The notes under the pieces are model-generated. The model searched no databases and was not told the origin of the DNA. It saw only the letters and a list, made by a program, of their open reading frames with translations. From IMG/VR virus record IMGVR_UViG_3300008266_000068, positions 1 through 57,973 of that record: a DNA stretch of 57,973 nt. The stretch is one strand, 5' to 3'. Of the stretch, positions 26,521 to 46,503 are shown one piece after another; positions within the stretch are counted from its first letter, which is position 1; each line of letters opens with the position of its first letter. This DNA comes from a virus. Lineage: Duplodnaviria; Caudoviricetes. The translations under genes were made by a program, and so were the position numbers.

Positions 26521-28164
26521 TTATTTATCAAGTAAAATACCTGTGATAATTATTTTATTTACAGGATAATTAGGAACAACAGAATACTGTACTTTGTAAG
26601 TATCTGATTCAACTGTTACTGTTATATCTCTATAATCAACAATTAAATTATCTTGCGTTGATCTTGCCATTTTTGAACTTAAAAATCCATCAACAAAATT
26701 TACTACGTCTTCAACTGATACTGTATTTCTGTTTGCACCGTAATCTTTTGAAAAGAAATCCAATTTAGCATTTATTGCCATTTCTTTATTTAACTGTGCT
26801 ATAATTCGCATTACCGCAACATCGTGTGATTGTGCATCTGAATTTACAAGGTATAAATTACTTTGCAATGTATTAACACCTTGACAAACAACAAAATTAT
26901 TTAATTCAGTATCTTTGTAAGTCATACAAATACCGTAATCCAACCCTTGTTCCAATTCTAACGGCGTTAGAGCATGAGATTCAGCGTCGATATCGATATC
27001 CTTAAATGTTACAGGTGTTTGCGGTTCCAACCCTGCTAATCGTCCTGTAATAGCCGCAGCTTTAAATAAAGTAGGATATGTTATTAATGATGCGTAACCA
27101 CGTTTTGCTTTTTTATGTTCACCATGTACAACAATAACTTTCGATGTATCAAAATCTGCAGCAAGTTTTCTGCTTGACGCAGCTGCTTGTACAAATTCTG
27201 TTTTATCTTTACCTCCACCAACAACCATAAATTTTTGGTATTTAGCATCAAACATAGATGCGAGGATTTTTAAATTATTTGTACCAGCACCATCTGTAAC
27301 GCCATATACGTCGCATAAAAAGAAAGTATGATCAACTTCTGTAATTGCAGCTAATATAGTATCAAGGTGAGTAGATGAATACGTTTCAGTCGCACCAGAA
27401 AATAATTTAATATTTGGATTTGCAACTACGTCGGCAGCTGTGATAGCTCCTGTTCCGACAACTGTTTTTGCAGTTAATTTAAAGAACTGTAAAAAATTGT
27501 AATCAGTTTCCATCCACAAATGCAATGCTGCAATATTGTTTAACGGTGGTGATTGACATAAAAGTGTTGCAACAGTTTTCGCTTGTGCTATTCCATCATA
27601 ATCAATTGAATTAGCGTCTGCACCACGATATGTACCTACAGAGAATTGGAATATAAATTTAGTATTATCATTTGGATCAGTTATAATTTTACTACCATAT
27701 CCTTTTGTTAATACTGATCCCGATAAAACACCATTAGCACCAAGTCCTTCATCTACAGTTGCAAGAACTGCAGTACCACCATCAGGACCTGCACCTGCTA
27801 AAGTCCACGTTGATGCTGCTCTTGTAGTAGCAGCTGCTTTTATCAGCATAACTTTCGATGCACCGGGTATATTAAATCTTTTTGAAGGCCTGAATAAAGG
27901 TTCAGCGATAGCCCATAAAATACCACCGCGGATAAAATTTTGCATTTCACTTACATCGTTAAAAACATATAACGAATCAAGTCCCGATTTATTTTGTCCT
28001 GATACTCCACTACCACCACCAAAAGTTGCACCACTTCCAGTATCTATAATAAGTACATTTCCGTATGAAAACTTTACAGGCGGGTTTTTAATTCCAGATT
28101 GTATATCTGTATAAACACCGGGCCTGCCGATTAACTTACCTTTTACATTAATTTTAGTAGACAT
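26521..28164 (-). CDS. Tail sheath protein
   Basis: N-terminal RPGVYT, GRLAGLEPQTPVTFK, QGVNTL and C-terminal PNYPVNKIIITG sheath motifs. Confidence 0.9.
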   Translation of the reverse strand: MSTKINVKGKLIGRPGVYTDIQSGIKNPPVKFSYGNVLIIDTGSGATFGGGSGVSGQNKSGLDSLYVFNDVSEMQNFIRGGILWAIAEPLFRPSKRFNIPGASKVMLIKAAATTRAASTWTLAGAGPDGGTAVLATVDEGLGANGVLSGSVLTKGYGSKIITDPNDNTKFIFQFSVGTYRGADANSIDYDGIAQAKTVATLLCQSPPLNNIAALHLWMETDYNFLQFFKLTAKTVVGTGAITAADVVANPNIKLFSGATETYSSTHLDTILAAITEVDHTFFLCDVYGVTDGAGTNNLKILASMFDAKYQKFMVVGGGKDKTEFVQAAASSRKLAADFDTSKVIVVHGEHKKAKRGYASLITYPTLFKAAAITGRLAGLEPQTPVTFKDIDIDAESHALTPLELEQGLDYGICMTYKDTELNNFVVCQGVNTLQSNLYLVNSDAQSHDVAVMRIIAQLNKEMAINAKLDFFSKDYGANRNTVSVEDVVNFVDGFLSSKMARSTQDNLIVDYRDITVTVESDTYKVQYSVVPNYPVNKIIITGILLDK

Positions 28165-29085: not shown

Positions 29086-29889
29086 TTAACTAAATCCCAT
29101 TTGCGATAAAACAGTATCTACAGTTCTTTCTAAATTATTTTCCATATTTATATCCATACCATTTAAAGCATTTTGAAATAAATTATATGCTTTTATTCCA
29201 GGGTGAATAAAAGCACTTTGATCACTGTTTTCACTTACTCGTCTAAACGATTTATAAACGTTTTGATCTGTTGTTTCGTCTTTGTATTTTGATATTCCTT
29301 CATAAATATTTCCTTTATGGAAATATGCATCAAACCCGGGAATATTTTGACGCTTTGTTTGAACTTGATATTGCTTAGGAATTTCATCAACAGTTAATGA
29401 TGCAGTTTTAATACCACCACCAACAACAGGAATTGTAAAAGTTTTCTTTTTAACTATAGTATGAATTTCTTCTGGCATTTTAAAAGAAAAAACTTCGCTT
29501 TCACCAACAGAACCTGACGCTGCCCATCTAAAAGGTATTGTTAAATACTTATTTCCTTTTTTATCAGTTTTCACTTTTGGTGATGCTAAAAATCCAGTCT
29601 TCATATCAAATGAAGATGCACCTTCTTCTATCATAGCAACTAATGGATCTTTTAAACTTAACACAACAGATGCGTGTCCGGGTGCTTCAGAAAAAGTTTG
29701 AATAGCTCTTAAATATCTATTACGAGTTGATTTTAAATTTTGTTGCGCTTCATTTTGTAATTGATTAGCAAACTCTGCAGCAACACTTGATACAACTGAC
29801 TGTAAAAATTGATTAGACTGTTCTTCAGAAAAAGAAAATTCTTTTTCTAATTCACTTAAATCTATTTGAATAGGAATTGAAACTGTCAT
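29086..29889 (-). CDS. Putative neck/head-tail joining protein
   Basis: MIEEGASSFDMK...YLTIPFR...FRRVSENSDQSAFIHPG, resembling Herelleviridae-type neck proteins. Confidence 0.65.
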   Translation of the reverse strand: MTVSIPIQIDLSELEKEFSFSEEQSNQFLQSVVSSVAAEFANQLQNEAQQNLKSTRNRYLRAIQTFSEAPGHASVVLSLKDPLVAMIEEGASSFDMKTGFLASPKVKTDKKGNKYLTIPFRWAASGSVGESEVFSFKMPEEIHTIVKKKTFTIPVVGGGIKTASLTVDEIPKQYQVQTKRQNIPGFDAYFHKGNIYEGISKYKDETTDQNVYKSFRRVSENSDQSAFIHPGIKAYNLFQNALNGMDINMENNLERTVDTVLSQMGFS

Positions 29890-29898
29890 ATAGCAAAA

Positions 29899-31557
29899 TT
29901 AATCAATAATATAAAATATTGTTCTTTTTAAATTAATAACTCTTACTTTACCAGATATCGATACGTAATTAGTACCAGATAAAGTTATGTTTATTATACC
30001 AGTTATTTGCTGTTCAGTAGTGTTTTGAATATCGATTTTACCACTCTGTGTTTGATTAGTAGTATTGCGAATTAATATTGCACCAATAATATTTTCATTT
30101 ATTACTTTTTGTATTCTTGTAATACCAGCAATATCTTGATTAATGATTTTATTTATTCTTACAACACCTGATTGATTTTGATCGACTGCTTTTTGAATGC
30201 GAACAATACCAGCGATATTATTATCAACTACTTTTTGTATTCTTACAATAGCAGGTTGAGTAACTTCAACTGTTTTTCGAATATCGATTTTACCAGTTTG
30301 TATTACATTAATTACTTTACGTATCCTTACAGTACCAGTTTGATTAACATCTATTGTTTTATTTATTCTTACAACGCCAGTTATCTGCTGTTGTGTAGTA
30401 TTTCTTATACAAATTTTACCAGATATAAATACTTGTCCTGCTGTTGAAATATATATTTTACCAGTAATTATTTGATCAGTAGTATTTCTAATATTAATGA
30501 TACCTACTTGCGTAGAATTAATTATTTTTTGAACACGTATTTTACCTGTTTGAGTAACATCAACTTGTTTTTGTACTCTTATTAAACCAGTTTGATTATT
30601 ATTGGTTGTATTACGAATATTTATTTTACCTGTTTGATTTACAGATATTATTTTTTGAATGCTTACAGTACCAATTTGATTTACAGATATTATTTTTTGA
30701 ATTCTTGTTTTACCTGTAATCGATACATCAATTATTTTTTGAATCCTTATTACACCTACTTGCGATGTATCGACAGATTTTTGAATACGTATAACACCTA
30801 TTTGATAGCGATCAGTAGCTTTTCGAATATCTACCTTACCTACAATTGTTTGCTGTGTAGTATTACGAACATTAATTATACCCGCTTGTGTAGTATTAAT
30901 TATTTTTTCAATACGAACAATACCAGTTATTATAACATCTACAGTTTTTTGAATACGAACTTTACCGGTTTGAGTTTGAGCAGTAGTATTTCTTACATTT
31001 ACCTTACCAGTAATAATTTGATTAGTAGTATTACGAACATTAATTTTACCGGTAATTGTTTGATCAACTGAGTTTATGATATTAACTTTACCAGTTTGAT
31101 TTTGATCAATTACTTTTCTTATTCGTATAATACCTAAAATAGTTTGTTCTACTACTTTCTGTATTCTTATAATACCGGGCTGAGTAACTTCTACAGATTT
31201 GCGAATACGTATAACTCCTGTTATTGTACTTTCTATTGTTTTTCTAATTCGTATAATACCAAGCTGAGTTCTCTCAGTTGTGTTACGAATACTAACTATA
31301 CCAACTTGAGTTGCATTAATAATTTTTTGAATTCTCGTTATACCTGTTATTGTAGTATTAACAGTCTTATTAATTCGTATAACACCGGTTTGATTAACAT
31401 CAACAGATTTTTGAATGCGAACTTTACCAATCTGTGTAGTATCGATTATTTTTTGAATACGAACAATACCACTTTGTGTAACATCTACAGTGGTATTTGC
31501 AGTCTTATATTTTAATATAAGTGGTTTAAACGGTTGCGATCTTCCTAACCTTGCCAT
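29899..31557 (-). CDS. 14-aa tandem-repeat protein (fibre/scaffold-like)
   Basis: About 37 repeats of consensus G-[IKV]-[IV]-R-I-[QR]-[KN]-x-[IVT]-[DN]-x-[TN]-[QI]-T. Confidence 0.8.
   Translation of the reverse strand: MARLGRSQPFKPLILKYKTANTTVDVTQSGIVRIQKIIDTTQIGKVRIQKSVDVNQTGVIRINKTVNTTITGITRIQKIINATQVGIVSIRNTTERTQLGIIRIRKTIESTITGVIRIRKSVEVTQPGIIRIQKVVEQTILGIIRIRKVIDQNQTGKVNIINSVDQTITGKINVRNTTNQIITGKVNVRNTTAQTQTGKVRIQKTVDVIITGIVRIEKIINTTQAGIINVRNTTQQTIVGKVDIRKATDRYQIGVIRIQKSVDTSQVGVIRIQKIIDVSITGKTRIQKIISVNQIGTVSIQKIISVNQTGKINIRNTTNNNQTGLIRVQKQVDVTQTGKIRVQKIINSTQVGIINIRNTTDQIITGKIYISTAGQVFISGKICIRNTTQQQITGVVRINKTIDVNQTGTVRIRKVINVIQTGKIDIRKTVEVTQPAIVRIQKVVDNNIAGIVRIQKAVDQNQSGVVRINKIINQDIAGITRIQKVINENIIGAILIRNTTNQTQSGKIDIQNTTEQQITGIINITLSGTNYVSISGKVRVINLKRTIFYIID
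29935..31490. repeat. 42-nt-period coding tandem repeat
   Basis: 14-codon periodicity; near-exact copies such as tttgatttacagatattattttttgaat at ~30633 and ~30675. Confidence 0.8.
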
Positions 31558-31616
31558 TTTATTGTATTAATATAATAATCATTGTATTGATTATTTAAAA
31601 ATTATTCACTATTTTA

Positions 31617-32840
31617 TTACCTTAAAGATGCTCTACGTATTGCTTGTATAGTTTGAAAAATTTTATTTGGAATTGAATTTACAACTTCTGCAAATTCCGC
31701 TTCAATCATAATACCTCTCCAATATTGATCTGGAGTGGCATCACTTGAATATCCAAATCTCGCCCGTATATTATTAAAATTACCTGCACCACTTACTACA
31801 GTCCATGCCCCACCTGTAGGTGCTAAAGCATAATGTTTTCTAACATACCTATCTGTTATAACTCCAGCTACCGAACCTCGGTTTGCAACAGCACTTTCTG
31901 TTCCGTTATCGTTTAACTTAGTTTGAAAAAGACCTGTAGCTGTTGATGCTTGTCTATCTGCCGTTATTACTTCAACAGCTCTTGGTGCTACTGTAGGTGT
32001 ACTTATTCCTGATGCTGGACCAAATATAACTTCAGCATAAAGAGTTGAAGCTGCGGTTTGATGGTTAACAAGTCTGGTATTATCTGTTAATCCTCCTAAT
32101 AATGGAACACCGTTTACCCAATTCCATACATCTGTTGCTCCCGCTACGTTTCCACCACCAGTAGGTGCGGCAATTGTACCTTTTACTATTGTTGTTGTTG
32201 TGGCTGTATGCGTTCCATCAGATGTTGGTACAAAATGCTCCACTTTACCTGCGCCTAATGGATAATCAGCTACAGTATTTGAAGCGAGTATATCATCTAT
32301 AAAAACATCTCCTGTCCAATTACTAACGTCTTGTTCGAGAATCCTAATTGTAGTATTAACTTGTAAACCTGTTGCAAATGATACTTGACTACAAGCAACC
32401 CCATTTACTTGAACATCTATTAAATGAGGATTAGCTGAGCTGTCTATTTTTACATCAATACGATACCACTGACCAGTAACAACACTTACTCCCGTTGTTC
32501 CTAGTGTATTTCCAAAAGCAGCACATATTTCTTGTGTAGATGTTTTATAAACTGCACCGCCCGATTGCACTGTTCCTAGCATAAGAACCCAACCTTGTAT
32601 AGTTGTAGGCAATGTAGCAAAATAAACATAACATCTCATTGCTACAGTAGTGCTGGCAAGAACAGAAGCACTACGAATATTAGTCATTTGTGCACTAGGA
32701 TTGGCTCTTAAGCTTCTTGCACCAGACCTTACAGTTGATGTGCTAATTGTTGCTGAATGAGTGCCAGCATTAGCCCAATGTTGCCCAGCAGAACCTAATT
32801 GCCCGCATTCAAAACCACAACAAAATACCGGAGTTGCCAT
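31617..32840 (-). CDS. Concanavalin/LamG-like beta-sandwich virion protein (putative receptor-binding)
   Basis: FCCGFE...STVRSGARSLR...TGQWYRIDVKID...VQVNG...VFIDDI pattern; Thr/Ala/Gly rich; higher GC than flanks. Confidence 0.55.
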   Translation of the reverse strand: MATPVFCCGFECGQLGSAGQHWANAGTHSATISTSTVRSGARSLRANPSAQMTNIRSASVLASTTVAMRCYVYFATLPTTIQGWVLMLGTVQSGGAVYKTSTQEICAAFGNTLGTTGVSVVTGQWYRIDVKIDSSANPHLIDVQVNGVACSQVSFATGLQVNTTIRILEQDVSNWTGDVFIDDILASNTVADYPLGAGKVEHFVPTSDGTHTATTTTIVKGTIAAPTGGGNVAGATDVWNWVNGVPLLGGLTDNTRLVNHQTAASTLYAEVIFGPASGISTPTVAPRAVEVITADRQASTATGLFQTKLNDNGTESAVANRGSVAGVITDRYVRKHYALAPTGGAWTVVSGAGNFNNIRARFGYSSDATPDQYWRGIMIEAEFAEVVNSIPNKIFQTIQAIRRASLR

Positions 32841-32843
32841 AGT

Positions 32844-33182
32844 TTACATATTTATAGTTATTCTTGGTGCTTGAGCTTCTATAGCATCCTGCCCTGTCTG
32901 ATTTTCAGAAGTTGCTACATATCCTATATAAGTTACAAAAGTAGAACTACCCCATGCTTTAGGATCAAATGTCTTTGAACCTGTCAATGGTGGTGCAATA
33001 GTAGGATTTTGTGTTGCACTCCATGATTCGATAGCAACCACAGAACTTGATGCCATAAGTTTCTTACCATAAACGATAGAGATTGTTAACGACCAAGGCT
33101 TCCCATCAAATACTGCATTCCAAGATACTGTATGAGTACCATTAGGATTCTTTATTGCTGTTAATGTTAATGAATTTGCCAT
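32844..33182 (-). CDS. Hypothetical beta-rich protein
   Basis: 112-aa ORF within the neck-inserted module. Confidence 0.55.
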   Translation of the reverse strand: MANSLTLTAIKNPNGTHTVSWNAVFDGKPWSLTISIVYGKKLMASSSVVAIESWSATQNPTIAPPLTGSKTFDPKAWGSSTFVTYIGYVATSENQTGQDAIEAQAPRITINM

Positions 33183-33226
33183 TTTTATTTGATTTAAATG
33201 TTAAAAGAAGTGACTGAATAGGCTAA

Positions 33227-33727
33227 TTACTCCTCCCAAATAATATAACAAATTGCATTAACAGCAGCGGCAGCTTTTACTCTTACCCTTAAAATTGTTG
33301 ATACAGGAACTTCAGGTTCTCTACCTAATGGAAATTGTTTTATGTATTGGTTTGTTGGTGCAACTAATTGACAGTCTAACATTCTTGTTGCAGCTACAGT
33401 TCCTTCGGCAGAAGCTGTATAACCTGTTCCAGCCACGCCTAACGTCATATTACTTGCTGGAGCAGTTGCATCTTCAAATGGAGGAACACCTGCTGCCACA
33501 TGTGCCGTAACAGTTGCTGCTACCGCTGCTGTAGTTAAAAGTTCACAAAGAATTGGTGTTGCTGCTGCACTACCGTCAAATGATATTCCCCATTCAACGA
33601 TTTTTATTTTCATTGTTGCCGGAACCTGAATTTGCAGCATCGTTTTTATGTTAGTACCAGTCGTAACAGCAACTTGTGAAGCAGTCGTTGGTGCTGGACC
33701 ATTGAAGGCTATATATAACTTACCCAT
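33227..33727 (-). CDS. Hypothetical structural protein (Ala/Thr-rich beta-sandwich)
   Basis: 166 aa, Ala/Thr/Val rich, ends ICYIIWEE. Confidence 0.6.
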   Translation of the reverse strand: MGKLYIAFNGPAPTTASQVAVTTGTNIKTMLQIQVPATMKIKIVEWGISFDGSAAATPILCELLTTAAVAATVTAHVAAGVPPFEDATAPASNMTLGVAGTGYTASAEGTVAATRMLDCQLVAPTNQYIKQFPLGREPEVPVSTILRVRVKAAAAVNAICYIIWEE

Positions 33728-33751
33728 AGTTATTGTTTTTAAAAAATTAAT

Positions 33752-34165
33752 TTATGATATTTCAAATATACGTTTATGATTTTTTCCAGTTTCATCATTA
33801 GCTTGCCACCCAAAACGATACCAAATTTGATGCGATAATTCTTCAAAATCAACGTTAAAATTTCTTTTATGTTTTCTAAAAAATATCACTCTGTAATTAG
33901 ATAAAACAACATCGTTTTCTTCATTACCAATTACAGGACAGGCAATTTCAAAACCGTTGATAAAAAAAGTACCAGTCAATAAATTAACTTCAAAAATATT
34001 TACTGTATCAGTTAATTGAAAAGCAATAAGTTTTTTACCTTTTTCAATCATCTGTAATACATCATAAAACGCAGATTTTTTATCATTAATACTTGAAACG
34101 TCATTATGATCTTGATATAACGACGTTTCATCATCAAATTTTGCGATAAATAAATATTTTAACAT
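33752..34165 (-). CDS. Hypothetical protein (possible assembly chaperone)
   Basis: 137 aa, charged/aromatic composition unlike its fibre-type neighbours. Confidence 0.55.
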   Translation of the reverse strand: MLKYLFIAKFDDETSLYQDHNDVSSINDKKSAFYDVLQMIEKGKKLIAFQLTDTVNIFEVNLLTGTFFINGFEIACPVIGNEENDVVLSNYRVIFFRKHKRNFNVDFEELSHQIWYRFGWQANDETGKNHKRIFEIS

Positions 34166-34188
34166 TGTATTGTTTTTTTAAATAAAAA

Positions 34189-34740
34189 TTAATTTTCCTG
34201 ATATTGAAGTGTTAACGTAACTGTCGCTGAATCACCTGCGGCGGCACTACCTGCAGTTTGCATTTGTGTTGTTAAGTAATTTGTAAAACATGGATTAGTT
34301 GCCATTGACGTAGCTTTACCTGTTGCTTCAGGACCTGTTGCACCAAAACATACACCTACTCCAGAACCAATTGCAATTACTGTTGTCATATCTGTTGTTA
34401 GAAGTGCATTTGCAGTTGTAGAAGGTGTTGTATATAACAATCTACTTGCATCGTTAGTACAAGCAGGTGTACCTTTTAACGTTAACCCAGTACCTAATAC
34501 ACCGGCTGTATGCGCAAATAATCCACCAAGAATTAAATTAAAAGTACCGGTAAATCTACCAAACTGCCATTTTTCAAAACTGTTACTACCTGCAGTAACA
34601 GGATTTGACGTATACGCAGTAGTGCTATCGTCGATATTTTTCCAGTTAACTTCTGCACGTGTACCAGTACGTGTTGTACCTTTTGTAGGTGAACCAGTTT
34701 GTGTTCCGTTATCTTCCTGCCATTCAAATGTTGCTGCCAT
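34189..34740 (-). CDS. Hypothetical structural protein (Thr/Gly-rich, possible fibre subunit)
   Basis: 183 aa, Thr/Gly/Ala rich, ends VTLTLQYQEN. Confidence 0.6.
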   Translation of the reverse strand: MAATFEWQEDNGTQTGSPTKGTTRTGTRAEVNWKNIDDSTTAYTSNPVTAGSNSFEKWQFGRFTGTFNLILGGLFAHTAGVLGTGLTLKGTPACTNDASRLLYTTPSTTANALLTTDMTTVIAIGSGVGVCFGATGPEATGKATSMATNPCFTNYLTTQMQTAGSAAAGDSATVTLTLQYQEN

Positions 34741-34745
34741 AATAT

Positions 34746-35285
34746 TTATGTTTTTATTATTTTTAACGATATTAAAACTCTTGTAATTAAAGAACTCGAT
34801 AACACGTTAAATCTTAGTATATCATCTTTTAATAAATCATCATCCCAACCAATTATTGTATTATCTGTCGATTTCAAAGCGTTTGTAATTGTTGGAGTAG
34901 CTGATGCAGTAATTGAATTAAATCCACCGGGATAATTTACAAAATTACTTTTTTCAATATCTACTACTATACTACCTTGTTGATCGGCAATCAAATTTAC
35001 TTCTTTTATTTGACAATTAAAAGGAACAATTATATCTCCTTGTAAACCAGTTTGAACTATTCCACCACCACCATATATTATAAATCCTAAAGCAGAATCA
35101 AATCCTAAAAATGGAATTGTTCTTATAAATCCGTTATCTTTATATTTTAATCTACCAGAAGTTTGATTATACCAAAACTGCCCTTCAAGTGGCGATATAG
35201 GATCTGACGCTACTAAATCAATAACAACGTTTTTAAGTTGATTGTTTTTTAAATTAATATCTACTTCAAATTCTTCTTCTGCCAT
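34746..35285 (-). CDS. Fibre adaptor-like protein
   Basis: N-terminal DINLKNNQLKNVVIDLVASDPISPLEGQFWYN motif typical of fibre N-termini, followed by a beta-sandwich. Confidence 0.55.
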   Translation of the reverse strand: MAEEEFEVDINLKNNQLKNVVIDLVASDPISPLEGQFWYNQTSGRLKYKDNGFIRTIPFLGFDSALGFIIYGGGGIVQTGLQGDIIVPFNCQIKEVNLIADQQGSIVVDIEKSNFVNYPGGFNSITASATPTITNALKSTDNTIIGWDDDLLKDDILRFNVLSSSLITRVLISLKIIKT

Positions 35286-35286
35286 T

Positions 35287-36354
35287 TTATTGCAATATTA
35301 CTTTTCCTGAAATTGAATTATTTGCCGTTATCCTAACAACTGTTGTACTAATATTTTCAACCTTTGCTTGAATTTGTTTCCCATTAATATCAAAAATCGA
35401 TACATCTGGATATCTACCAAAATTATGAGTAATATTAATTACAGTTTGATTTGTAAAACTATATACTACAGTAGGTAACGTTATTAAATTAACTGTATTT
35501 ATTATTAATACACTTTGTCCACCACCGTCGTTAGAATTATCGCCAATTAAAATAGTTTCTTTAGTAACTGATCCATCAGGTACAAAAGAATTATCAATAA
35601 TTCTATCAGCAGTTAAATTTTGCATATCTGCTATATAATGCGCACGTTGTGCAGTAGCAGAAACAGGTAAGCTTTCTAATTCTTTACCCGGGTGTTTTCT
35701 CCAACTCTGCATTGTTTCCCTCCCCATTTCAAGTATATGATATTGAGGCGCGTGATAATATTTTATAGTAAGTCCTAATTCAGGATTGTCAGTAAAAATA
35801 GTTTTAATACCGTTATCGATAATTCTTACTACATTATTTTCAATTGAATAATGTATACCTAATTCTAATCTTGTAAATGCATTGTTGTTATCAACATACA
35901 TAGCGCAATAAAGAATTGATTTAATATTATATACAGTATAAGAAAACATTACTCCATCTTGTATTTGAAAATGAAGAACTTCATTAAATATAGAATTTCC
36001 ATCTAACAATGTAATTCTATCCATGTAACTTATTTTTTCATCTTCTATCGCAGAAATATTTATCATTCCACGAACCTTTTCACTCCAGTCTCTAAATTCA
36101 GTTACGGCGTTTACTTTCGTAATCACCATTCGTGTTTCTTTTTTATTTATAAATACCCATCCAGTTCCAGCGCAGTTTCTACAAGTTGATTGCTGATTTG
36201 AAGTTGTACTTTTACAAGGACATTGAATAGCGCTTTCATGAATTACTGTTCTTCCATGTTGCCATATTAACGTATCAAACAAATTATCATCTAAGTATGT
36301 ACCTGATGCTGTGTTTGCGTTTTGTGGTGGCGTTTTTGCTATTACAGTTGCCAT
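35287..36354 (-). CDS. Neck/head-closure protein with C-terminal fibre-attachment-like domain
   Basis: CPC...CRNCAGTGW motif of Herelleviridae-like neck proteins; C-terminal ITHNFGRYPDVSIFD...SGKVIL extension. Confidence 0.65.
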   Translation of the reverse strand: MATVIAKTPPQNANTASGTYLDDNLFDTLIWQHGRTVIHESAIQCPCKSTTSNQQSTCRNCAGTGWVFINKKETRMVITKVNAVTEFRDWSEKVRGMINISAIEDEKISYMDRITLLDGNSIFNEVLHFQIQDGVMFSYTVYNIKSILYCAMYVDNNNAFTRLELGIHYSIENNVVRIIDNGIKTIFTDNPELGLTIKYYHAPQYHILEMGRETMQSWRKHPGKELESLPVSATAQRAHYIADMQNLTADRIIDNSFVPDGSVTKETILIGDNSNDGGGQSVLIINTVNLITLPTVVYSFTNQTVINITHNFGRYPDVSIFDINGKQIQAKVENISTTVVRITANNSISGKVILQ

Positions 36355-38736: not shown

Positions 38737-40224
38737 TTAAGCTACCAATGTCTTGGCGCAGTTAATAAACCTTACCATTTTTTTCGGAGCATAAAGATTC
38801 GGGGTTCCAAATAAGAAACAGATAAACTGCCTGCTCATTGAAATAACCGCTAAATCCAATTTTGATATCGGCGCCAATTGTTTAAATGAAACAACTTCAT
38901 CATTCCATTGTGTTAAGAATGCTTGTTCCATATCCGGTAAGAAATATCCAAGATCACGAACTACGTTAGCTGCTGCACCATCAAAACCTGTAATTGCATC
39001 ACCTTTTGAAACTGCAAATAAAGGATAAAATTCTAATCCAGTTGGAGTTGCGGCGGCAGTAGGTTTAGTCCTGTAAATTCTGTAACCTAAAGTAGGATAA
39101 GTGCCAGCACCATCTGTAACTGCTACGTCTACTGCTTTACCAGTAATAACAACCATTGCTGTTGCATCGATAGTTAAAGCAGATTCACCAAATTTACCAA
39201 TAGCTGAAACAGCGTAAAAATAATTAAGTGATCCAGGGTTATCAACAGCAGTTACATATTTACTGTTAGCGTCAGTTTGTAAAATTGATACACCACCTGT
39301 AGGAGCAGCAGGAGCTTTAGTATCAGGAAGTGATGCAGAATTTTTAGAACCCGGTGCTTTGATAAATTTATCACCAGTTAAATTAACATCGCCTACTGAT
39401 GTAGAAATAGCTTTTAATACAGTTCCCATTGTACCACTTACACCACCGCGGCCATCCTGCAAAATCCTTTGCTGATTGTAATAATCCTGAGATAAAGCGG
39501 AATTTACTTTTGGTGGAGCGAATAAATCGGTAGCAGTACCATAATGATCATCAACTATAATAGCACCTTTTTCAACGTCAGTTTGTTTTAATGATTTACC
39601 ACGTAAATCAACAACAACATCGGATTCAAAGTATGCTTTCCTGTTTGGCCAGAAATACTGTAAATTACCACCGGAACCGATCGACATATGCTGTTTATAC
39701 AAACCATTAAATTGATCTGGTACAATACCTGAATCGGCAAATGCAAGGTTGCGGTTAGCTAACCTTAAAATCCATTTCATTTTATTTTCAACTTCCTGGG
39801 TCATGGCTTGTACAAATGATTTAACCATTTGCGCCTGCATTGTTACAGAACCTGTAACCTGCATGTACTTCACCAATTCCGCCCTACGGATATATGAAGA
39901 ATCTTCAACTTCAGAAAGTTCACCTTCTGAATAAAATCCTCCTCTTTCAGAACCGTAACTGTACAACTGAACAAATTCTTCAACGGTGTTGTAAGCAACC
40001 ATTTTCGGAATTGAATTGAACATTTTAATATCCTGGGTACGGTATTCCAGATTTTTTAATGTTCTTTCTAACGATTCGGGTTTTAAAGGCTCCATTGTCA
40101 GGGAAAGGTTGGTCGTTTCACGGCCAGTTGTACTTCCTGCCTGCATGGCTTTCAACAGTTCTTCACCAGAAACATCTCCGGCGAACCCCTGTGAAAAATC
40201 ATCAAGTGATAAGTGGTTAAACAT
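38737..40224 (-). CDS. Major capsid protein (Herelleviridae-like, HK97 fold)
   Basis: ELLKAMQAG leader, LKPESLERTLK, AYNTVEEF, F.SEGEL, QFNGL, QLAPISKLDLA. Follows protease, has distinct higher-GC codon use and a strong downstream terminator. Confidence 0.9.
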   Translation of the reverse strand: MFNHLSLDDFSQGFAGDVSGEELLKAMQAGSTTGRETTNLSLTMEPLKPESLERTLKNLEYRTQDIKMFNSIPKMVAYNTVEEFVQLYSYGSERGGFYSEGELSEVEDSSYIRRAELVKYMQVTGSVTMQAQMVKSFVQAMTQEVENKMKWILRLANRNLAFADSGIVPDQFNGLYKQHMSIGSGGNLQYFWPNRKAYFESDVVVDLRGKSLKQTDVEKGAIIVDDHYGTATDLFAPPKVNSALSQDYYNQQRILQDGRGGVSGTMGTVLKAISTSVGDVNLTGDKFIKAPGSKNSASLPDTKAPAAPTGGVSILQTDANSKYVTAVDNPGSLNYFYAVSAIGKFGESALTIDATAMVVITGKAVDVAVTDGAGTYPTLGYRIYRTKPTAAATPTGLEFYPLFAVSKGDAITGFDGAAANVVRDLGYFLPDMEQAFLTQWNDEVVSFKQLAPISKLDLAVISMSRQFICFLFGTPNLYAPKKMVRFINCAKTLVA

Positions 40225-40294: not shown

Positions 40295-42007
40295 CTATGA
40301 TACTATATTTAATCCCTTACCTGTAAGATATTTATATGTAGTTCTTTCATCCAGCGTTTTAGCTATTTCAATTTCCTGAACTGATTTTTGCAACATTTGA
40401 TCAGTACCATAATTTGGCATTTCTTCGATACGTTGCATTAATGCTTCTCTATCTTCAGATTTTGATAAGCTATATACTTCACCTTCTGCTTTATTATTGT
40501 TTCCTTCATCTTTTGATTTTTCAAAACGTGGTACTTCCCTTACATTTTGAAACGCTTTTCTACCACCTTGAAATGTAGCAATTTTTTGCAGTAAATTTGA
40601 ATTACTTTCAACTGAAGCATCAAATGATTTTTGAATTGAACTAACTTTTTCAGTTTGCTGTTCTGCAATATCTGCGATAGCGGTAAATCGTGAACTTAAA
40701 AAATCAGATTGCTTAATAAAAATTTGTTCCATTCTATCAATAACGCTTGATAAAGATTTTTCCAACACTTCTTCAATAAGCAAAATATTCATTTCTTTTG
40801 ACTTCCCTAATTCTGAAGTATCACCACCCATATTTTTTGAATTCATTTCAGCCAATACGCTTTGCCATGCGCCTTGACATTCACTTAAAGAAAAACCTTT
40901 ACGAATTGAATCTTCGTAAAATGAATTTTCAACTTCAGGTGTTACACCGGCTTCAATAAAAGTTTCACATGATTTTTTTAATTCATCTTTTCTTTCACCT
41001 TCCTTAATTTGTTTCTCAACTTCTTCTTCAGTAAGTGAAGCGTTATCACCTGTTGTATTTATTTTTTCTTTAACACCACCTTCGTCTTTACCTTTTTCAA
41101 AAATCTTATTTACGTTTTCATCATCTTTTAAAAGATCTTCTGCAGATTGTGATTTACGTAAAATATCAAAAGACTTCTGTAACGCTGTTTCAGAAACTGT
41201 AGTTTTGTTATTAGTATTTGACATATCAGGATGAATTTTATTATTAACGGCTAAAATGAAATTATAAATATCTTTTGCTTTTGACAAATTTATATCAAAA
41301 TTCTTAATTATTTCACAATATACTTGTGATTTTGTTAAAGTTTTTAATCTACCATCTGTTTCAACCGATTCTAATGTAGTAGGAGCAAGAGATGAAGTAG
41401 TCATATCTTTCTCTAAATATCCACATTTTATACATTTACCATTTTGTAATTGTTCATCTGTACAATTTGGACAATATGTTTCGGGAGCAATATATAGTTC
41501 ATTATATTGACCTTTTACTATATTAACAAATGTATTTGAATTTTTAGGACAGTGTGTAATTGCAACACCAGTTATTAATGCTTTACGAACACGCTTTGGA
41601 TTTAATGGGTCTCTGTCAGTTGCTATACCTTCAATTGACCAACCTAACTGTCGCGTTGATTTATTTTTCTTTAACGTAATTGCTTTATTATAAGTATCAA
41701 TAGCTTTTTTATCGCCTTTAAATAATTTACCTCTTATAAAAAACTCATTGTTTTCAGTTACTCTTGCAGTCATAGGTTCACCTATAATAGCATCGGGATC
41801 GTCTTTTGCACGGTGATTCCAATTAATAACGCCTGATTCCATAAGCGGAGAAAAATCAAAACCTGAGGGATCAAGATATTCACCATCAAAATCTCTTCCA
41901 TTATCAGAAGCTATTCCTTCGATAATCATTTCACCATTTGATTCTTCTGTTCCTTTTACTATTTCAATTGGAACGAAAAAATTAAATTTATTTTTTTGAT
42001 CTATCAT
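40295..42007 (-). CDS. Prohead protease fused to a scaffold-like domain
   Basis: IEGIASD...DFDGE, INWNH (His), LGWSIEG (Ser), VAITHCPKN; then CPNC/CIKC and a long acidic helical tail. Confidence 0.85.
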   Translation of the reverse strand: MIDQKNKFNFFVPIEIVKGTEESNGEMIIEGIASDNGRDFDGEYLDPSGFDFSPLMESGVINWNHRAKDDPDAIIGEPMTARVTENNEFFIRGKLFKGDKKAIDTYNKAITLKKNKSTRQLGWSIEGIATDRDPLNPKRVRKALITGVAITHCPKNSNTFVNIVKGQYNELYIAPETYCPNCTDEQLQNGKCIKCGYLEKDMTTSSLAPTTLESVETDGRLKTLTKSQVYCEIIKNFDINLSKAKDIYNFILAVNNKIHPDMSNTNNKTTVSETALQKSFDILRKSQSAEDLLKDDENVNKIFEKGKDEGGVKEKINTTGDNASLTEEEVEKQIKEGERKDELKKSCETFIEAGVTPEVENSFYEDSIRKGFSLSECQGAWQSVLAEMNSKNMGGDTSELGKSKEMNILLIEEVLEKSLSSVIDRMEQIFIKQSDFLSSRFTAIADIAEQQTEKVSSIQKSFDASVESNSNLLQKIATFQGGRKAFQNVREVPRFEKSKDEGNNNKAEGEVYSLSKSEDREALMQRIEEMPNYGTDQMLQKSVQEIEIAKTLDERTTYKYLTGKGLNIVS

Positions 42008-42865: not shown

Positions 42866-43354
42866 TTATTTTATCCCTACTTTTCCTTTTATTAATTTCA
42901 TAAAAGGTGTAACAACATATTTTACTATTTTTGCTTCAGGATTAATAGCTATAAGATTTTCACAAATTGAAATTAATTCTATTAATAAAATAAAAATAAA
43001 TGCGCCATCAATTATAACTCTATATTTACTGAAATTGTTTTTTCCTACTGATATATTCAGTAAAATAGTTCCAACCAATATAAATCCAGCATATTGCGTT
43101 AATTTACTGATAGTCTGTCTTAAACCCTGGCTTGTTGTATTATTTTTTTGCACCCAAGCTTTACATAAACCTGTTATTAAATCAATTATAACTGCTATCG
43201 ATAATAATAATATAAAATCAACAGAAGGTAAATACAATACTTCTAAAAATGTAAAACCTAATAACATAGCCAAAAATGGATATGATTTTAATAATAAAAA
43301 TTTTTGTATCATTAGGTTTGTTTTTAATTGACTTATTTTTAATAATTGATTCAT
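42866..43354 (-). CDS. Phage holin (holin_4-like)
   Basis: IIDLITGLCKAW...TSQGLRQTISK...IELISICENL family motifs. Confidence 0.75.
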   Translation of the reverse strand: MNQLLKISQLKTNLMIQKFLLLKSYPFLAMLLGFTFLEVLYLPSVDFILLLSIAVIIDLITGLCKAWVQKNNTTSQGLRQTISKLTQYAGFILVGTILLNISVGKNNFSKYRVIIDGAFIFILLIELISICENLIAINPEAKIVKYVVTPFMKLIKGKVGIK

Positions 43355-43422: not shown

Positions 43423-46400
43423 TTAAATAATTTCTGTTACGACAAATGTTGAACCGACAAGCACACTTGATGCTGTACCGAAACTTGCGTTTTGTGCAAA
43501 CTGTACTGTAAGTGTTCCTGCTGCGTTGACTGTTATAGTTCCTTTGATTGTAAGTGATGCTGCTGTTACTGCTGTTACTGCTGAAACGGCAGTACCAAGA
43601 GCTGTACCTCTGCCTCCAATTCCTAAACTTGGATAAGCAGGGAAAGATTCGTAAATAATATTAGTTGCTGTTGCAGTCCCTGCGATAGCAAACTGTACGC
43701 CGCCAGCTACATTTGAGGTGGTATATAATATAGCCTCAAACCGATAGGTCTTACCAGCAACCAATGTCGCAGTAAGCCCTGTAATATCATCAAGAGTTGT
43801 GTTTGATGTTTTATCAAATTGTGACGTTACTCTGCTTGATTGAGTTTGTAATCCAGATGTACCCCATGAATATCCGTTGTAAAACACAGGTGCTTTGATT
43901 GTACTATCATATACTTGAAGTCCTGTTGCTGGTGTTACAATCGCATCCCTCTGTGCTGTTGTCTGGCGTGGCATCAACACCCCTTTATCAGTAGATGTCA
44001 AATCAAGTATTGCAGAAGCATTGGCTGTTGCAACACCTATACTCACCCTGCCTGCCGCTGTTGGCGCACCTGATGATGCTGTTTGACCTCCATAAATATT
44101 TGTACCATAAATAAGGTTTCCTATATTCAACAAAGCTGAATCATTTGCAGTCTGTCCATCAACAAAATTGCCTATGATGATATTTTTATGGGCTGCTCTG
44201 TGAATATTGCCAGTACTTGTACCTATCATAACATTATAGTTTCCAATCGTGTCCCAATATTGGGCGTTTCGCCCCATAGCTATATTGTAAGCACCATATA
44301 AAGATTTTGTCTTTGCAAATGTGCCTACTGCAACATTGTAATTTCCTGTTAAATGTTCATACATAGCCTCTTTACCCATAACTGTATTACCTCCTGATGA
44401 AGTAGCTTTTCTAAAAGCAACAAAACCAACAATGGTATTGTCTGAATTTGCATTTCTTCCATTAGCATAACCACCTATGGCGACATTGCCACTATGTATA
44501 ACATTAGAAGCCAATGCTGAATCCCCTATGGCTGTGTTTCCCGTGCCTGTTGTTGTTGAACCTAATGCATCTGCGCCTAATGCTGTATTCCAAACACCTG
44601 TTGCTACATCTGCTGCTCTATATCCTAATGAAGTAATCCTGTTGTTGCTGTTAATAGTTCCACTCTTTTCATTATTTACTCTGAATACAAATGCTCTGTT
44701 ATCTGTTGTGCCTATAAAATTAATTGAAGAATCAGTGCTTACATTTCCAAGTGTGCTCCATCCACTACTTGAACTGATTGCACCCCAACCGCTTGACCTG
44801 TAGAAATTAAAAGTGCTATCAGTTGTGTTGTAAACCATCAAACCAATTGCAGGTGAAACAATAGCATCTCTTTCAGGAGTTGTTAATCGTGGTATCAACA
44901 AACCTCTGCTTGTTGTTTTCATTTCAAGCAATGCAGAACTGTTTGGTATTGAAGTGCCAATACCAACATTTGTGTTTTGTGATGAATCACCAAGTATTAC
45001 AGTATTTGATTGTGCAACTTTTGTGAGTGCTCCAATAGCAGTTGCGTTTTTTAGGTTTGTTGTTGTAGGTACGGTTGCCAATACGCCTGTATAATAACCA
45101 AGAAAATTCATTAAAGAATCTTTGTACCGTGTGTTATTAGCACCTGACCACGAACCTATAAAATTGCTGCCAAACGAAGCTCTATCTCTCCACCCTGCCG
45201 CTTGACCTATCCATGTGTTATGATTGGAATTTGCAACAACTGCAGTAGCAGTAGCACCAACTCCATCACCTGTTATTGTAACTGTAGGCACAGTCCATGA
45301 ACCATGTGTATAATTAGTTGCTGCTCTATCAACGTAACCTATACCTGGGAATGTAATAGTTGCACCTGTAATCACACCCAAACTAATAATAGGTGTTGCA
45401 GTAGCAACCGCTTCATAAAGTGCCGGCATATTTGGTTGTCCGTATGTTTTTGGTGGGTCAACTGTTATTGTAGCAGTAGTATATCCACTACCTCCATTTG
45501 TGATAATTATAGTGTCAATAATGCCTGCTGCAAATCCACCAGCAGATGTACCTAACGCCGTATTATAACTACCATTTCCAATAGTCCTCATCGCATCTTT
45601 TCCAATAGCCGTATTGTTAGTTACCTTTATCCCTCTTTCCATCGCACCTGCACCAACCGAAGTTACGCCCTGACCTGCTACTGTCATAAAGTTTGCCAAC
45701 GAGCCTACGGTAGTTACACGACCATAATCTGATGCACTACCATACTGCAGATTAATAGCAGCTAAATTACCTATAACAGTAGTTTGCCCAGGAGTAAGCC
45801 ATGCAGAATCGGGGTCTAACTTATTTCCTATATTGGTTCCAGCGTATCCGCCTATAGCTGTAAGGCTATATCCGCTTGCCGATAATGTAGGATTATCTAA
45901 ATCTTTCTTAACCATTGCCTGCCCAGCTTTATAGCCGATAGTAACAAGCGATTGCCCAGGAAAACCAAACTCTGTAGGAGCTAAAGGCGCTTGAGTTAGC
46001 CAGCTATGCGGCTGTCCAATATACCATGCACTATTATCCCATATTCTACCCTGTAAAGCGTGTACAGAATCTACAGTACCGATGAAATTTGTATTATTTG
46101 TTCCTGTGTTTCCTGTATTATACCAAAAATTTGTACCAGTAAATACTTTACGCCATGCAGTTCCATTATACGAACAAATCATTAACGAATCTGTATTCCA
46201 AATTAATAAACCTGATAAAGGTGAAACTATAGCATTCATTTGCGCTGTAGTCAATCGCGGTATTAATATTCCTTTTGTAGTTGACGTTACATCTAAAATA
46301 GAAGATGAATTTGGCGCTAAAAAACTACTACCTGTATTTCCTATTCTTAATTTTCCATTAATAAGAAATACACCATCTCTATCACCACCTGATTTAACAC

Positions 46401-46503
46401 CACCTACTTTAGTAGTATCATATGCTAAATTACCTACTGATTTCTGCGCAATAATTTTATTGCAAAAACTAAACAACAGTAATAATAAAAGAATTTTTTT
46501 CAT
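43423..46503 (-). CDS. Fibre/adhesin-like beta-helix protein with an N-terminal signal-peptide-like sequence
   Basis: MKKILLLLLLFSFCNKIIAQ leader. Three copies of S.ILD.TST.KG.L.PR.TT.QR.AIV.P..GL.VY. NTAIG/NTALG/NVAIG YadA-head-like repeats. Confidence 0.7.
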   Translation of the reverse strand: MKKILLLLLLFSFCNKIIAQKSVGNLAYDTTKVGGVKSGGDRDGVFLINGKLRIGNTGSSFLAPNSSSILDVTSTTKGILIPRLTTAQMNAIVSPLSGLLIWNTDSLMICSYNGTAWRKVFTGTNFWYNTGNTGTNNTNFIGTVDSVHALQGRIWDNSAWYIGQPHSWLTQAPLAPTEFGFPGQSLVTIGYKAGQAMVKKDLDNPTLSASGYSLTAIGGYAGTNIGNKLDPDSAWLTPGQTTVIGNLAAINLQYGSASDYGRVTTVGSLANFMTVAGQGVTSVGAGAMERGIKVTNNTAIGKDAMRTIGNGSYNTALGTSAGGFAAGIIDTIIITNGGSGYTTATITVDPPKTYGQPNMPALYEAVATATPIISLGVITGATITFPGIGYVDRAATNYTHGSWTVPTVTITGDGVGATATAVVANSNHNTWIGQAAGWRDRASFGSNFIGSWSGANNTRYKDSLMNFLGYYTGVLATVPTTTNLKNATAIGALTKVAQSNTVILGDSSQNTNVGIGTSIPNSSALLEMKTTSRGLLIPRLTTPERDAIVSPAIGLMVYNTTDSTFNFYRSSGWGAISSSSGWSTLGNVSTDSSINFIGTTDNRAFVFRVNNEKSGTINSNNRITSLGYRAADVATGVWNTALGADALGSTTTGTGNTAIGDSALASNVIHSGNVAIGGYANGRNANSDNTIVGFVAFRKATSSGGNTVMGKEAMYEHLTGNYNVAVGTFAKTKSLYGAYNIAMGRNAQYWDTIGNYNVMIGTSTGNIHRAAHKNIIIGNFVDGQTANDSALLNIGNLIYGTNIYGGQTASSGAPTAAGRVSIGVATANASAILDLTSTDKGVLMPRQTTAQRDAIVTPATGLQVYDSTIKAPVFYNGYSWGTSGLQTQSSRVTSQFDKTSNTTLDDITGLTATLVAGKTYRFEAILYTTSNVAGGVQFAIAGTATATNIIYESFPAYPSLGIGGRGTALGTAVSAVTAVTAASLTIKGTITVNAAGTLTVQFAQNASFGTASSVLVGSTFVVTEII

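Follow-up and report, generated by a model that had tools for sequence, protein, structure and literature searches.

The window analyzed here is the complete 57,973-base contig of the phage genome IMGVR_UViG_3300008266_000068 (IMG/VR). The genome is AT-rich, with a mean GC of 0.294 over genes, and every long open reading frame (ORF) of the window is carried by the minus strand. Seven genes, here designated as the fibre cluster (29899-35285, minus strand), occupy the interval between the structural genes g355 and g267. All seven ORFs were confirmed on the minus strand in the places proposed by the original prediction, which had been made from the DNA letters and described them as a fibre-like module between two neck-region genes. 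Judged from the sequences, the cluster is composed of two nested, mobile, widespread but unnamed gene sets. Its features, with protein lengths in amino acids (aa) and the spacer in nucleotides (nt), are as follows:

34746-35285, minus strand: g179, 179 aa, a virion structural protein with the C-terminal domain phrog_35197/phrog_10330
34189-34740, minus strand: g183, 183 aa, a conserved partner of 14-aa-repeat fibres, recognized by co-occurrence
33752-34165, minus strand: g137, 137 aa, a second conserved partner between g183 and the fibre, also recognized by co-occurrence
33227-33727, minus strand: g166, 166 aa, a single jelly-roll and the proposed coupling piece, from an AlphaFold2 (AF2) model and co-occurrence
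32844-33182, minus strand: g112, 112 aa, a small orphan ORF in a variable slot between g166 and A
31617-32840, minus strand: g407 (protein A), 407 aa, a two-domain head with a putative N-terminal domain similar to concanavalin A (ConA)/Cip1, ending in the A-tail ..QTIQAIRRASLR
31558-31616, minus strand: an AT-rich 59-nt spacer between A and B, read from the sequence
29899-31557, minus strand: g552 (protein B), 552 aa, the fibre shaft, recognized by its B-head, repeats, and cap

The gene g166 is far more conserved than the genes around it. Relatives were found from 20 IMG/VR contigs with 48-64% identity, and these contigs showed no match to the window genes outside the cluster (tblastn, 1e-4). 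A scan of bacterial genomes revealed 19 further loci with 50-67% identity, from Nonomuraea (4 genomes), Actinomycetospora, Actinoplanes, a Collierbacteria metagenome-assembled genome (MAG), several Pseudomonadota, Acidobacteriota, Schlesneria, Verrucomicrobiia, and a Pseudobdellovibrionaceae MAG. The identity is thereby kept at 48-67% across Actinomycetota, Patescibacteria, Pseudomonadota, Acidobacteriota, Planctomycetota, and Verrucomicrobiota. In the alignment of 19 homologues, the mean column identity is 62% and 25 columns are invariant, with EWGISFDG and QFPLGREP as examples of stretches that hold invariant residues. The family includes at least 7,547 clusters at 90% identity, with 842 representatives at 50% identity (E <= 1e-3). 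No Pfam, PHROG, or NCBIfam match was obtained for g166, and the best 120 of the at least 7,547 clusters have no precomputed Pfam domain and only the name "hypothetical protein" (43 rows).

The genes accompanying g166 follow a fixed order: g166, a protein A ending with ..QAVNRAxxY/W/F, and a protein B starting with MAR[LF]GR[SG]xP. In the window, the two peptides are ..QAIRRASLR at the end of g407 and MARLGRSQPF at the head of the repeat fibre, and the tail of g407 aligns with ..NQAVKRAAYW in five relatives. Both peptides are present in 14 of the 20 IMG/VR loci obtained with g166, one in four, and neither in two, one of which is cut off at g166. The bacterial-genome loci have the B-head in 15/19 and the strict tail pattern in 9/19, with one doubtful case; three of the loci are short. 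Apart from their ends, the A and B bodies are unrelated between loci, and ConA-like, CBM96, Gly-rich minor-tail-like, Ser/Thr-rich, phrog_12240, and distal tail protein (Dit) types are observed. A CBM96 carbohydrate-binding module forms one of the A bodies, with 32.9 bits (cut-off 26), and several others match PHROGs annotated as minor tail protein.

The carrier of the B-head is different in the Nonomuraea prophages. Their gene order, seen in full in L046, is tape measure, a 224-aa gene, g166, A, B, and minor tail protein, and the B proteins of L046, L039, L042, and L043 are distal tail proteins (phrog_33/phrog_5577). PF22768 was detected in B of L039, L042, and L046 with 26.7-39.7 bits against a cut-off of 25, and more weakly in L043. 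An N-terminal extension of ~90 residues, opening with the head peptide, is present in these proteins. The B protein of the window, g552, showed no Dit match to PF22768 or phrog_33. Because the head sits on Dit in four Nonomuraea prophages, the B-head peptide is probably a portable docking tag.

The position of the g166 set in the genome is also variable. It is located between portal/MuF and protease (L018 and L008), after the large terminase (L016 and L019), after the major head protein (L013, L021, L057, and L049), before head-tail adaptors (L014, L044, and L057), and beside glycosyltransferase clusters (L004, L005, L014, L040, and L044). These varied sites argue against a single virion site for g166 and favour a portable joint between carrier and binding module, as far as gene order can indicate.

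The stop codon of A shares one base with the start codon of B in at least 10 other loci, and cassette exchange clearly occurs at these borders. Both observations would fit A-tail and B-head sequences that act as nucleic-acid signals, for translational coupling or as recombination sites, instead of docking peptides. This explanation is very improbable, since the peptides are kept at the amino-acid level from ~28% GC to high-GC Nonomuraea, since L010, L017, and L051 have their A gene ahead of g166 and away from B, and since A and B of the window are 59 nt apart with both peptides still kept. The junction of the window reads TAA TAA, 59 AT-rich nt, and a new start. A frameshift or a sequencing break between g407 and g552 was also considered, and was rejected in view of the clean double stop and the B start with its conserved head.

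A pair of related phages, L014 and L033, whose flanking genes are 63-85% identical, shows how the set behaves when A and B are joined. In L014, a 142-aa gene is followed by g166, A (395 aa, with the tail), B (473 aa, with the head), and a head-tail adaptor. L033 has a 143-aa gene, a single 708-aa protein, and the adaptor, with no g166, tail, or head. Residues 1-375 of the 708-aa protein are 53% identical to A of L014, and residues 378-708 are 32% identical to its B. Independent sampling with g407 as the query gave 18 loci. The four loci holding g166 all have the tail and the head, and neither peptide is present in any of the 14 loci without g166, six of which have fusions of 708-869 aa; the 14 include three near-duplicate pairs and one truncated locus. 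On the basis of the L014/L033 comparison and the g407 sampling, g166, the tail, and the head are apparently gained and lost as one unit, which is present exactly when A and B are separate polypeptides.

Fusions also connect g407 itself with the 14-aa repeats. In P0001 (810 aa), the N-terminal domain is 39% identical to the whole of g407, and in P0002 (811 aa), the N-terminal part is 45% identical over 394 aa; both keep the N-terminal CCGFECG motif, and the repeats follow directly in both. L075 encodes g183, g137, a 293-aa gene, and then an 811-aa protein in which a g407-like domain is fused to repeats. In these natural fusions the g407-like domain is immediately N-terminal to the repeats, which supports the view that g407 belongs with the repeat protein. 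The pairing of a LamG-like 407-aa protein with the repeat protein had already been proposed from the sequence, and the 39-45% identical fused domains bear it out. No Pfam match at E <= 0.05 was obtained for g407, the Laminin_G_3 (PF13385) feature was not found in it, and its only PHROG match is phrog_2448 (E 2.5e-6). P0013, which shares the N-terminal motifs of g407 by eye, reaches PF21340 (Cip1-like core) with 30.1 bits against a cut-off of 27; the A protein of L065 scores 20.3 bits, below this cut-off. The fold of g407 is likely ConA-like.

A ~149-aa protein is encoded upstream of g407-like genes that lack the A-tail (L024:4995-5444, L025:1011-1460, and L035:5090-5536). Its ends resemble g166, with ..TILQV.. 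near the start and ..ISWQE at the end, and it may be a distant analogue of g166 that uses a different docking motif.

Phage fibres frequently depend on dedicated chaperones, and the co-occurrence of g166 and its loss on fusion would be the same if g166 were an assembly chaperone for split A and B proteins, absent from the finished virion. Fibre chaperone genes are usually located downstream of the fibre gene and diverge fast. The gene g166 is upstream of the fibre and is the most conserved gene of its set, and its Ala/Gly/Thr-rich composition matches the structural genes, all of which makes a chaperone role of g166 unlikely.

The AF2 model of g166, based on the 19-row alignment, is a confident single jelly-roll sandwich (predicted local distance difference test (pLDDT) 87.5; predicted template modelling score (pTM) 0.86), and it has the eight-stranded sandwich of TNF/C1q-like proteins. 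The fold class is clearly jelly-roll in this model; a trimer is suggested by analogy only. Comparison with 48,161 PDB representatives gave matches at Z 6.5-9.3, among them a nanovirus coat protein (Z 9.3), Bacillus Ena (7a02, 8.6), satellite tobacco necrosis virus (8.5), the trimeric KHP40 cement protein (7dou_4, Z 8.0), TNF-family ligands (~7.5), and PRD1 P5 (6.9). The best Foldseek matches were the tail-needle knobs of Sf6 and HS1 (E ~5e-3). BFVD includes 45 fold matches (E <= 1e-3), all uncharacterised, among them proteins of cultured phages such as LIMEzero, CVT22, and Coruscant.

With TNF-like lectins, the Sf6/HS1 needle knob, PRD1 P5, and PLTL among the fold matches, g166 could itself be a conserved lectin or receptor-binding knob, and the conserved A and B termini would then reflect a shared virion assembly site. 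This is quite improbable. A receptor binder would hardly be conserved at 50-67% from Actinomycetota to Patescibacteria, g166 is dispensable once A and B are fused, and there is no common virion site, since B can be Dit or a neck-region fibre.

Two close relatives of the window, L062 and L001, carry another cassette in place of the g166 set. In L062, the identity to the window is 68% for g179, which is again directly upstream of g183, 74% for g183, 42% for g137, 72% for g267, 75% for g224, and 72% for the sheath; in L001, it is 72% for g267 and 77% for the sheath. Both keep the fibre repeats and the C-terminal cap (..VIID), and g267 again follows the fibre gene immediately in both. Instead of g166, g112, and g407, L062 has 213-aa and 582-aa genes between g137 and the fibre, and L001 has a >164-aa gene, a 237-aa LamG-like gene, and a 227-aa gene upstream of the fibre. 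Their fibres start with MFGxxYFGxxYFG, not with the B-head, and the first ~28 residues are replaced. These ~28 residues change together with the cassette, and the remainder of the fibre stays with the backbone. Because the N-terminus swaps with the cassette, the head and g166 can be placed at the fibre N-terminus and the virion at its C-terminus; the shaft would thus have a distal N-terminus and a C-terminal cap directed toward the virion.

Fibres with an MFG/MAGxxYFGxxxFG start and a different upstream cassette are encoded at L001:1945-3432, L062:4168-5103, and L064:10724-12694. This start may represent a second docking standard.

The repeat fibre g552 consists of the B-head (residues 1-12, MARLGRSQPFKP), repeats (residues 29-532), and a short C-terminal cap (..INLKRTIFYIID). 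Residues 29-532 are 36 consecutive 14-residue units with zero indels (~37 in the original prediction); the unit at 365-378 and the last two are degenerate. The consensus is ~TGxVRIQKxVDxTQ, with GKINVRNTT as a second flavour; in the 14-aa unit, Gly occupies position 2, and positions 4, 6, 10, and 14 are hydrophobic. Because the corresponding 42-nt period survives only in patches of the DNA (66-78% matches, Tandem Repeats Finder), the repeat copies appear to be old, with their register held by selection on the protein. In a simple periodicity count, g552 scores 21 and all other window ORFs <3, and a count of at least 5 is seen in only 6 of the 3,055 ORFs from the first 57 fetched loci.

The protein search revealed 38 fibre relatives of g552. 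In the 12 of these that were scanned with Pfam, no model covers the repeat itself; six have Laminin_G_3 above the cut-off, one the Cip1-like core, and one DUF7483. Among 25 distinct fibres, the median length of the non-repeat part is 225 aa on the N-terminal side and 56 aa on the C-terminal side. Based on these medians and the L075 fusion, the usual build of the fibre is probably an N-terminal globular head, a shaft, and a short C-terminal cap. A profile built from non-overlapping repeat segments has weak matches to the heptad-repeat coiled coils of the coronavirus spike and of paramyxovirus F proteins (E 0.018-0.5; HR1 regions at E 0.018-0.05). Two heptads also make up 14 residues; the match is probably compositional, but it leaves some small probability to a coiled-coil shaft.

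The companion of the repeats is g183. Sampling with g183 gave 50 IMG/VR loci with 33-76% identity, and a repeat fibre lies downstream in 27 of the 33 that have at least 5 kilobases downstream. Of the six loci in which no clear repeat protein is seen, L069 encodes a 178-aa protein with three recurrences and BLAST similarity to the repeats. Relatives of g137 were detected with tblastn in 31 of the 50 loci, and g166 in only six. Among the 42 fetched g166 loci, g183 was detected with tblastn in five (L006, L009, L017, L021, and L044), and a 14-aa-repeat protein is present in precisely those five and in no other. On the g166 tree, the g183 label changes six times. Because the five loci and the window are scattered on it, the g166-g183 pairing is, on this tree, not one inherited block. 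Together with g137, g183 tracks the repeat fibres, a pattern compatible with shaft binding and with a chaperone role, and its candidate roles are those of a shaft-binding protein, an anchor, or an assembly factor. No Pfam, PHROG, NCBIfam, or PADLOC match was obtained for g183, and ESM Atlas includes only viral "hypothetical" clusters of it. Comparison with hhalign indicated no relation of the g183 family to the ~150-aa phrog_644/5417-like proteins that precede g166 elsewhere.

Between g183 and g137, other loci often have a ~100-aa ORF with a CxxC...H/C zinc-ribbon-like start (L058:8555-8845, L061:8554-8874, and L062:931-1260). The window has only a 23-nt gap there.

It had been proposed that the repeat protein is a ruler or donor-strand scaffold, with each repeat binding one of the small proteins. 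For g166, this role is refuted because g166 follows the terminal peptides and not the repeats; the repeat protein is present in only 5 of the 42 g166 loci. The idea of a repeat-bound subunit finds no support for the 112-aa protein either, g112 having no relative in any fetched locus. It has no Pfam, PHROG, or NCBIfam match either, and unrelated ORFs of 122-170 aa occupy its slot in other loci.

The scaffold idea survives for g183 as one of several readings. The shaft would be decorated with g183 copies, one per repeat or per few repeats, and the filament length would follow the repeat number. The repeat fibre in 27/33 g183 loci, with little else conserved beside g183, is in its favour, as is the restriction of repeat proteins among the g166 loci to those with g183. 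The identity of g183 reaches 60-76% between otherwise unrelated phages, and its GC at second codon positions (GC2), 0.58, resembles that of abundant structural proteins. However, the repeats range from few to >45 with the same g183, which says nothing on stoichiometry, 6/33 loci have no clear repeat protein, and the co-occurrence is also explained if g183 acts in folding or attachment. Decoration of the shaft by g183 in this way is rather unlikely.

The preferred reading, considered modestly probable, is that the two portable sets build one virion-surface fibre, in which g166 couples an exchangeable lectin-like head to the N-terminus of the shaft. The first set would provide the shaft g552, with 36 beta-type 14-residue repeats and probably oligomeric, and the dedicated shaft partners g183 and g137, which would aid folding or attachment or sit on the shaft. 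In the second set, the jelly-roll g166 would bind both the C-terminal tail of g407 and the N-terminal head peptide of g552. The lectin-like, exchangeable head would in this way be clipped non-covalently onto the shaft at its distal N-terminus. At the opposite end, the C-terminal cap would face the virion, probably at the neck, because the fibre genes adjoin the stopper gene g355. Reversible adhesion to host surface glycans is the likely function, proposed because the head peptide occurs on Dit, one A body is a CBM96 module, and glycosyltransferase genes are frequent neighbours.

Several observations weigh against the coupling of head and shaft by g166. The fold matches of g166, at Z 7-9.3, fall within the range that the tool rates as common, and none stands apart. 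L008 has g166 and the A-tail with no recognisable B-head. The tail and head patterns were written after inspection of the data, and gene linkage alone could explain why g166, tail, and head occur together. The argument from fusion and loss consists of one clean pair and a presence/absence pattern that includes near-duplicate loci. The AF2 monomer of an 8-repeat segment is all-beta at low confidence (pLDDT 45; pTM 0.36), so that a beta shaft is indicated by composition and by a model without a confident monomer fold, and the repeat profile has a faint similarity to coiled-coil regions of PDB entries (best E 0.018). No relative was found in 50,697 GenBank phage records, which were searched with the region (blastn) and with g166 and g407 (tblastn).

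A wider proposal is that g166 and its cognate peptides constitute a universal cross-phylum plug-and-socket standard, and that g183 and g137 mark out 14-residue-repeat fibres, decorated or chaperoned, as a new class. This proposal is plausible and falls somewhat on the doubtful side. If it is true, any virion-anchored carrier with the 12-residue head, either a fibre or Dit, would accept any tail-bearing binding module, and phages could exchange their host-adhesion heads as cassettes with no need to refold the carrier.

The B proteins of L004 (11644-16464, 1,606 aa) and L005 (12309-15677, 1,122 aa) contain long Ser/Thr-only tracts, and their genes are directly downstream of glycosyltransferase and nucleotide-sugar epimerase clusters. 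This suggests that these two fibres are heavily glycosylated.

The base composition of the cluster is uneven, as had been noticed from the DNA. The genes for the 407-, 112-, 166-, and 183-aa proteins have a GC of 0.37-0.41 against the gene mean of 0.294. Their GC at third codon positions (GC3), 0.15-0.20, is compared with 0.153 +/- 0.043 for the backbone, and their GC2 is very high, 0.51-0.58; the GC excess is confined to codon positions 1 and 2. The higher GC reflects Ala/Gly/Thr-rich proteins. Recent horizontal import was considered as its cause and rejected, because GC3 equals that of the backbone. The base composition of g137 is average (GC 0.256; GC2 0.239), and because of this g137 is read as a non-structural helper, as the composition suggests. 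No Pfam, PHROG, or NCBIfam match was obtained for g137. NCBIfam gave nothing for the cluster proteins, and none of the seven matched the PADLOC defence models (E <= 0.01). The C-terminal domain of the g179 type also ends a 469-aa protein located upstream of g166 in L008.

The genes on both sides of the cluster, from head to tail, are as follows:

40295-42007, minus strand: head maturation protease (PHROG)
38737-40224, minus strand: major head protein (PHROG)
between the major head protein and g355, minus strand: a 271-aa and a 344-aa protein (gene order)
35287-36354, minus strand: g355, a putative neck stopper (head-closure) protein that has a tetra-cysteine loop and, at its C-terminus, an additional beta domain (phmmer, PHROG)
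29086-29889, minus strand: g267, a conserved structural gene that follows the fibre and probably serves the neck or tail completion (phrog_16819, position)
between g267 and the tail sheath, minus strand: g224, 224 aa (gene order)
26521-28164, minus strand: tail sheath (PHROG), with tube and baseplate genes beyond

The fibre cluster thus has head and neck genes on one side and tail genes on the other, and this gene order upholds its assignment to the neck gene region. The phage of the window is contractile-tailed by its PHROG gene order, because sheath, tube, and baseplate genes are present.

Of the two genes that had been called neck-like, g355 holds this assignment by its match to the phage 812 neck. 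Residues 30-152 align with residues 51-174 of PDB 8q01_S, from the phage 812 neck (phmmer, E 7.8e-6), and the four Cys of its CxC...CxxC pattern align with those of 8q01_S, which was taken as the stopper chain because of this cysteine loop. The N-terminal part is phrog_1004, and residues ~278-354 are a separate C-terminal domain (phrog_30556/10272), the extra domain that had been noticed in the neck protein. Both the sequence similarity and the tetra-cysteine loop with an external extra domain, as in the gp97-type stopper of phage 812, were found in g355. It is inferred to be a neck stopper of the phage 812 gp97 type with an additional C-terminal domain. PMC12886913 describes the stopper of the Staphylococcus phage 812 neck and reports whisker density for this neck. 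The related-locus search with g355 as the query returned no relative.

For g267, what points to the neck is its position next to the sheath genes. Its sole PHROG match, phrog_16819, has no assigned function, and in L074, a more distant relative, the g267 homologue is directly after the stopper. PDB sequence searches with g267, g271, g179, g224, and the g166 profile gave no meaningful match.

Three further ORFs of the window were recorded. A 2,061-aa ORF (47145-53330), between the head genes and the portal-like region, contains a Nudix hydrolase region (~970-1120) and a DNA helicase region (1266-1782). A 1,026-aa protein (43423-46503) matches PHROGs for tailspike and virion structural protein; it is located upstream of the protease and major head genes, away from the baseplate genes, and its GC2 of 0.52 is as high as in the fibre-cluster genes. 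A holin-like 162-aa ORF (42866-43354; phrog_199, E 6e-8) lies within the head gene block.

The exchange of receptor-binding parts is central to host-range evolution and phage engineering, and the peptide pair with its 166-aa adaptor would offer a directly usable way of docking new binding domains. Unrelated carriers seem to be served by it, in phages whose hosts are Actinomycetota, Pseudomonadota, Acidobacteriota, Planctomycetota, and candidate-phyla bacteria. None of Pfam, PHROGs, and NCBIfam names the g166 family, which is large. The family libraries and the searchable literature also lack a description of the 14-residue fibre repeat and of its two partners, and word searches of the papers found none of these protein families described.

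Among the known systems, the adenovirus fibre with its penton base and PRD1 P5 with P31 have triple beta-spiral shafts with ~15-residue pseudo-repeats, and a short conserved N-terminal peptide of such fibres docks on a jelly-roll protein. The short shaft repeat (14 residues here), the conserved Gly, and the spaced hydrophobic residues may resemble the adenovirus pattern, and PRD1 P5 is one of the g166 fold matches (Z 6.9). There is no sequence similarity, however, and g166 would join two proteins, whereas the jelly-roll of adenovirus and PRD1 anchors the fibre to the capsid vertex.

T4 fibritin (wac) is an alpha-helical coiled coil with a foldon. The position of the fibre gene among neck genes and the stopper homologous to the phage 812 neck protein recall fibritin and the phage 812 whiskers. 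The shaft of g552 differs in being rich in Gly and beta-branched residues and all-beta in the low-confidence model, and no family match of the T4 fibritin type was found for g552 in Pfam or PHROG. The same gene sets are also found in head or tail-tip regions of other phages, unlike in fibritin and phage 812.

Bacillus Ena subunits link through terminal peptides. The model of g166 matches the folds of Ena, TNF/C1q, and the KHP40 cement protein. Its difference from Ena, TNF, and C1q lies in an identity of only 6-16% and in the lack of a Cys-linked connector.

Conserved joints are also known from T4 gp34-37, the T2-type gp38 adhesin, lactococcal BppU/BppL, and "evolved" Dit with inserted carbohydrate-binding modules. 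Homology of the cluster proteins to T4 gp34-37/gp38, BppU/BppL, or evolved Dit was not found in Pfam, PHROG, or NCBIfam. The likeness lies in exchangeable receptor-binding parts that are attached via conserved ends and, for evolved Dit, in the Nonomuraea prophages, which carry a binding module on Dit. The cluster of the window differs from these multi-protein fibres in two respects: the joint comes with a third, separate protein of high conservation, g166, and the same joint is found on unrelated carriers, in hosts of many phyla.

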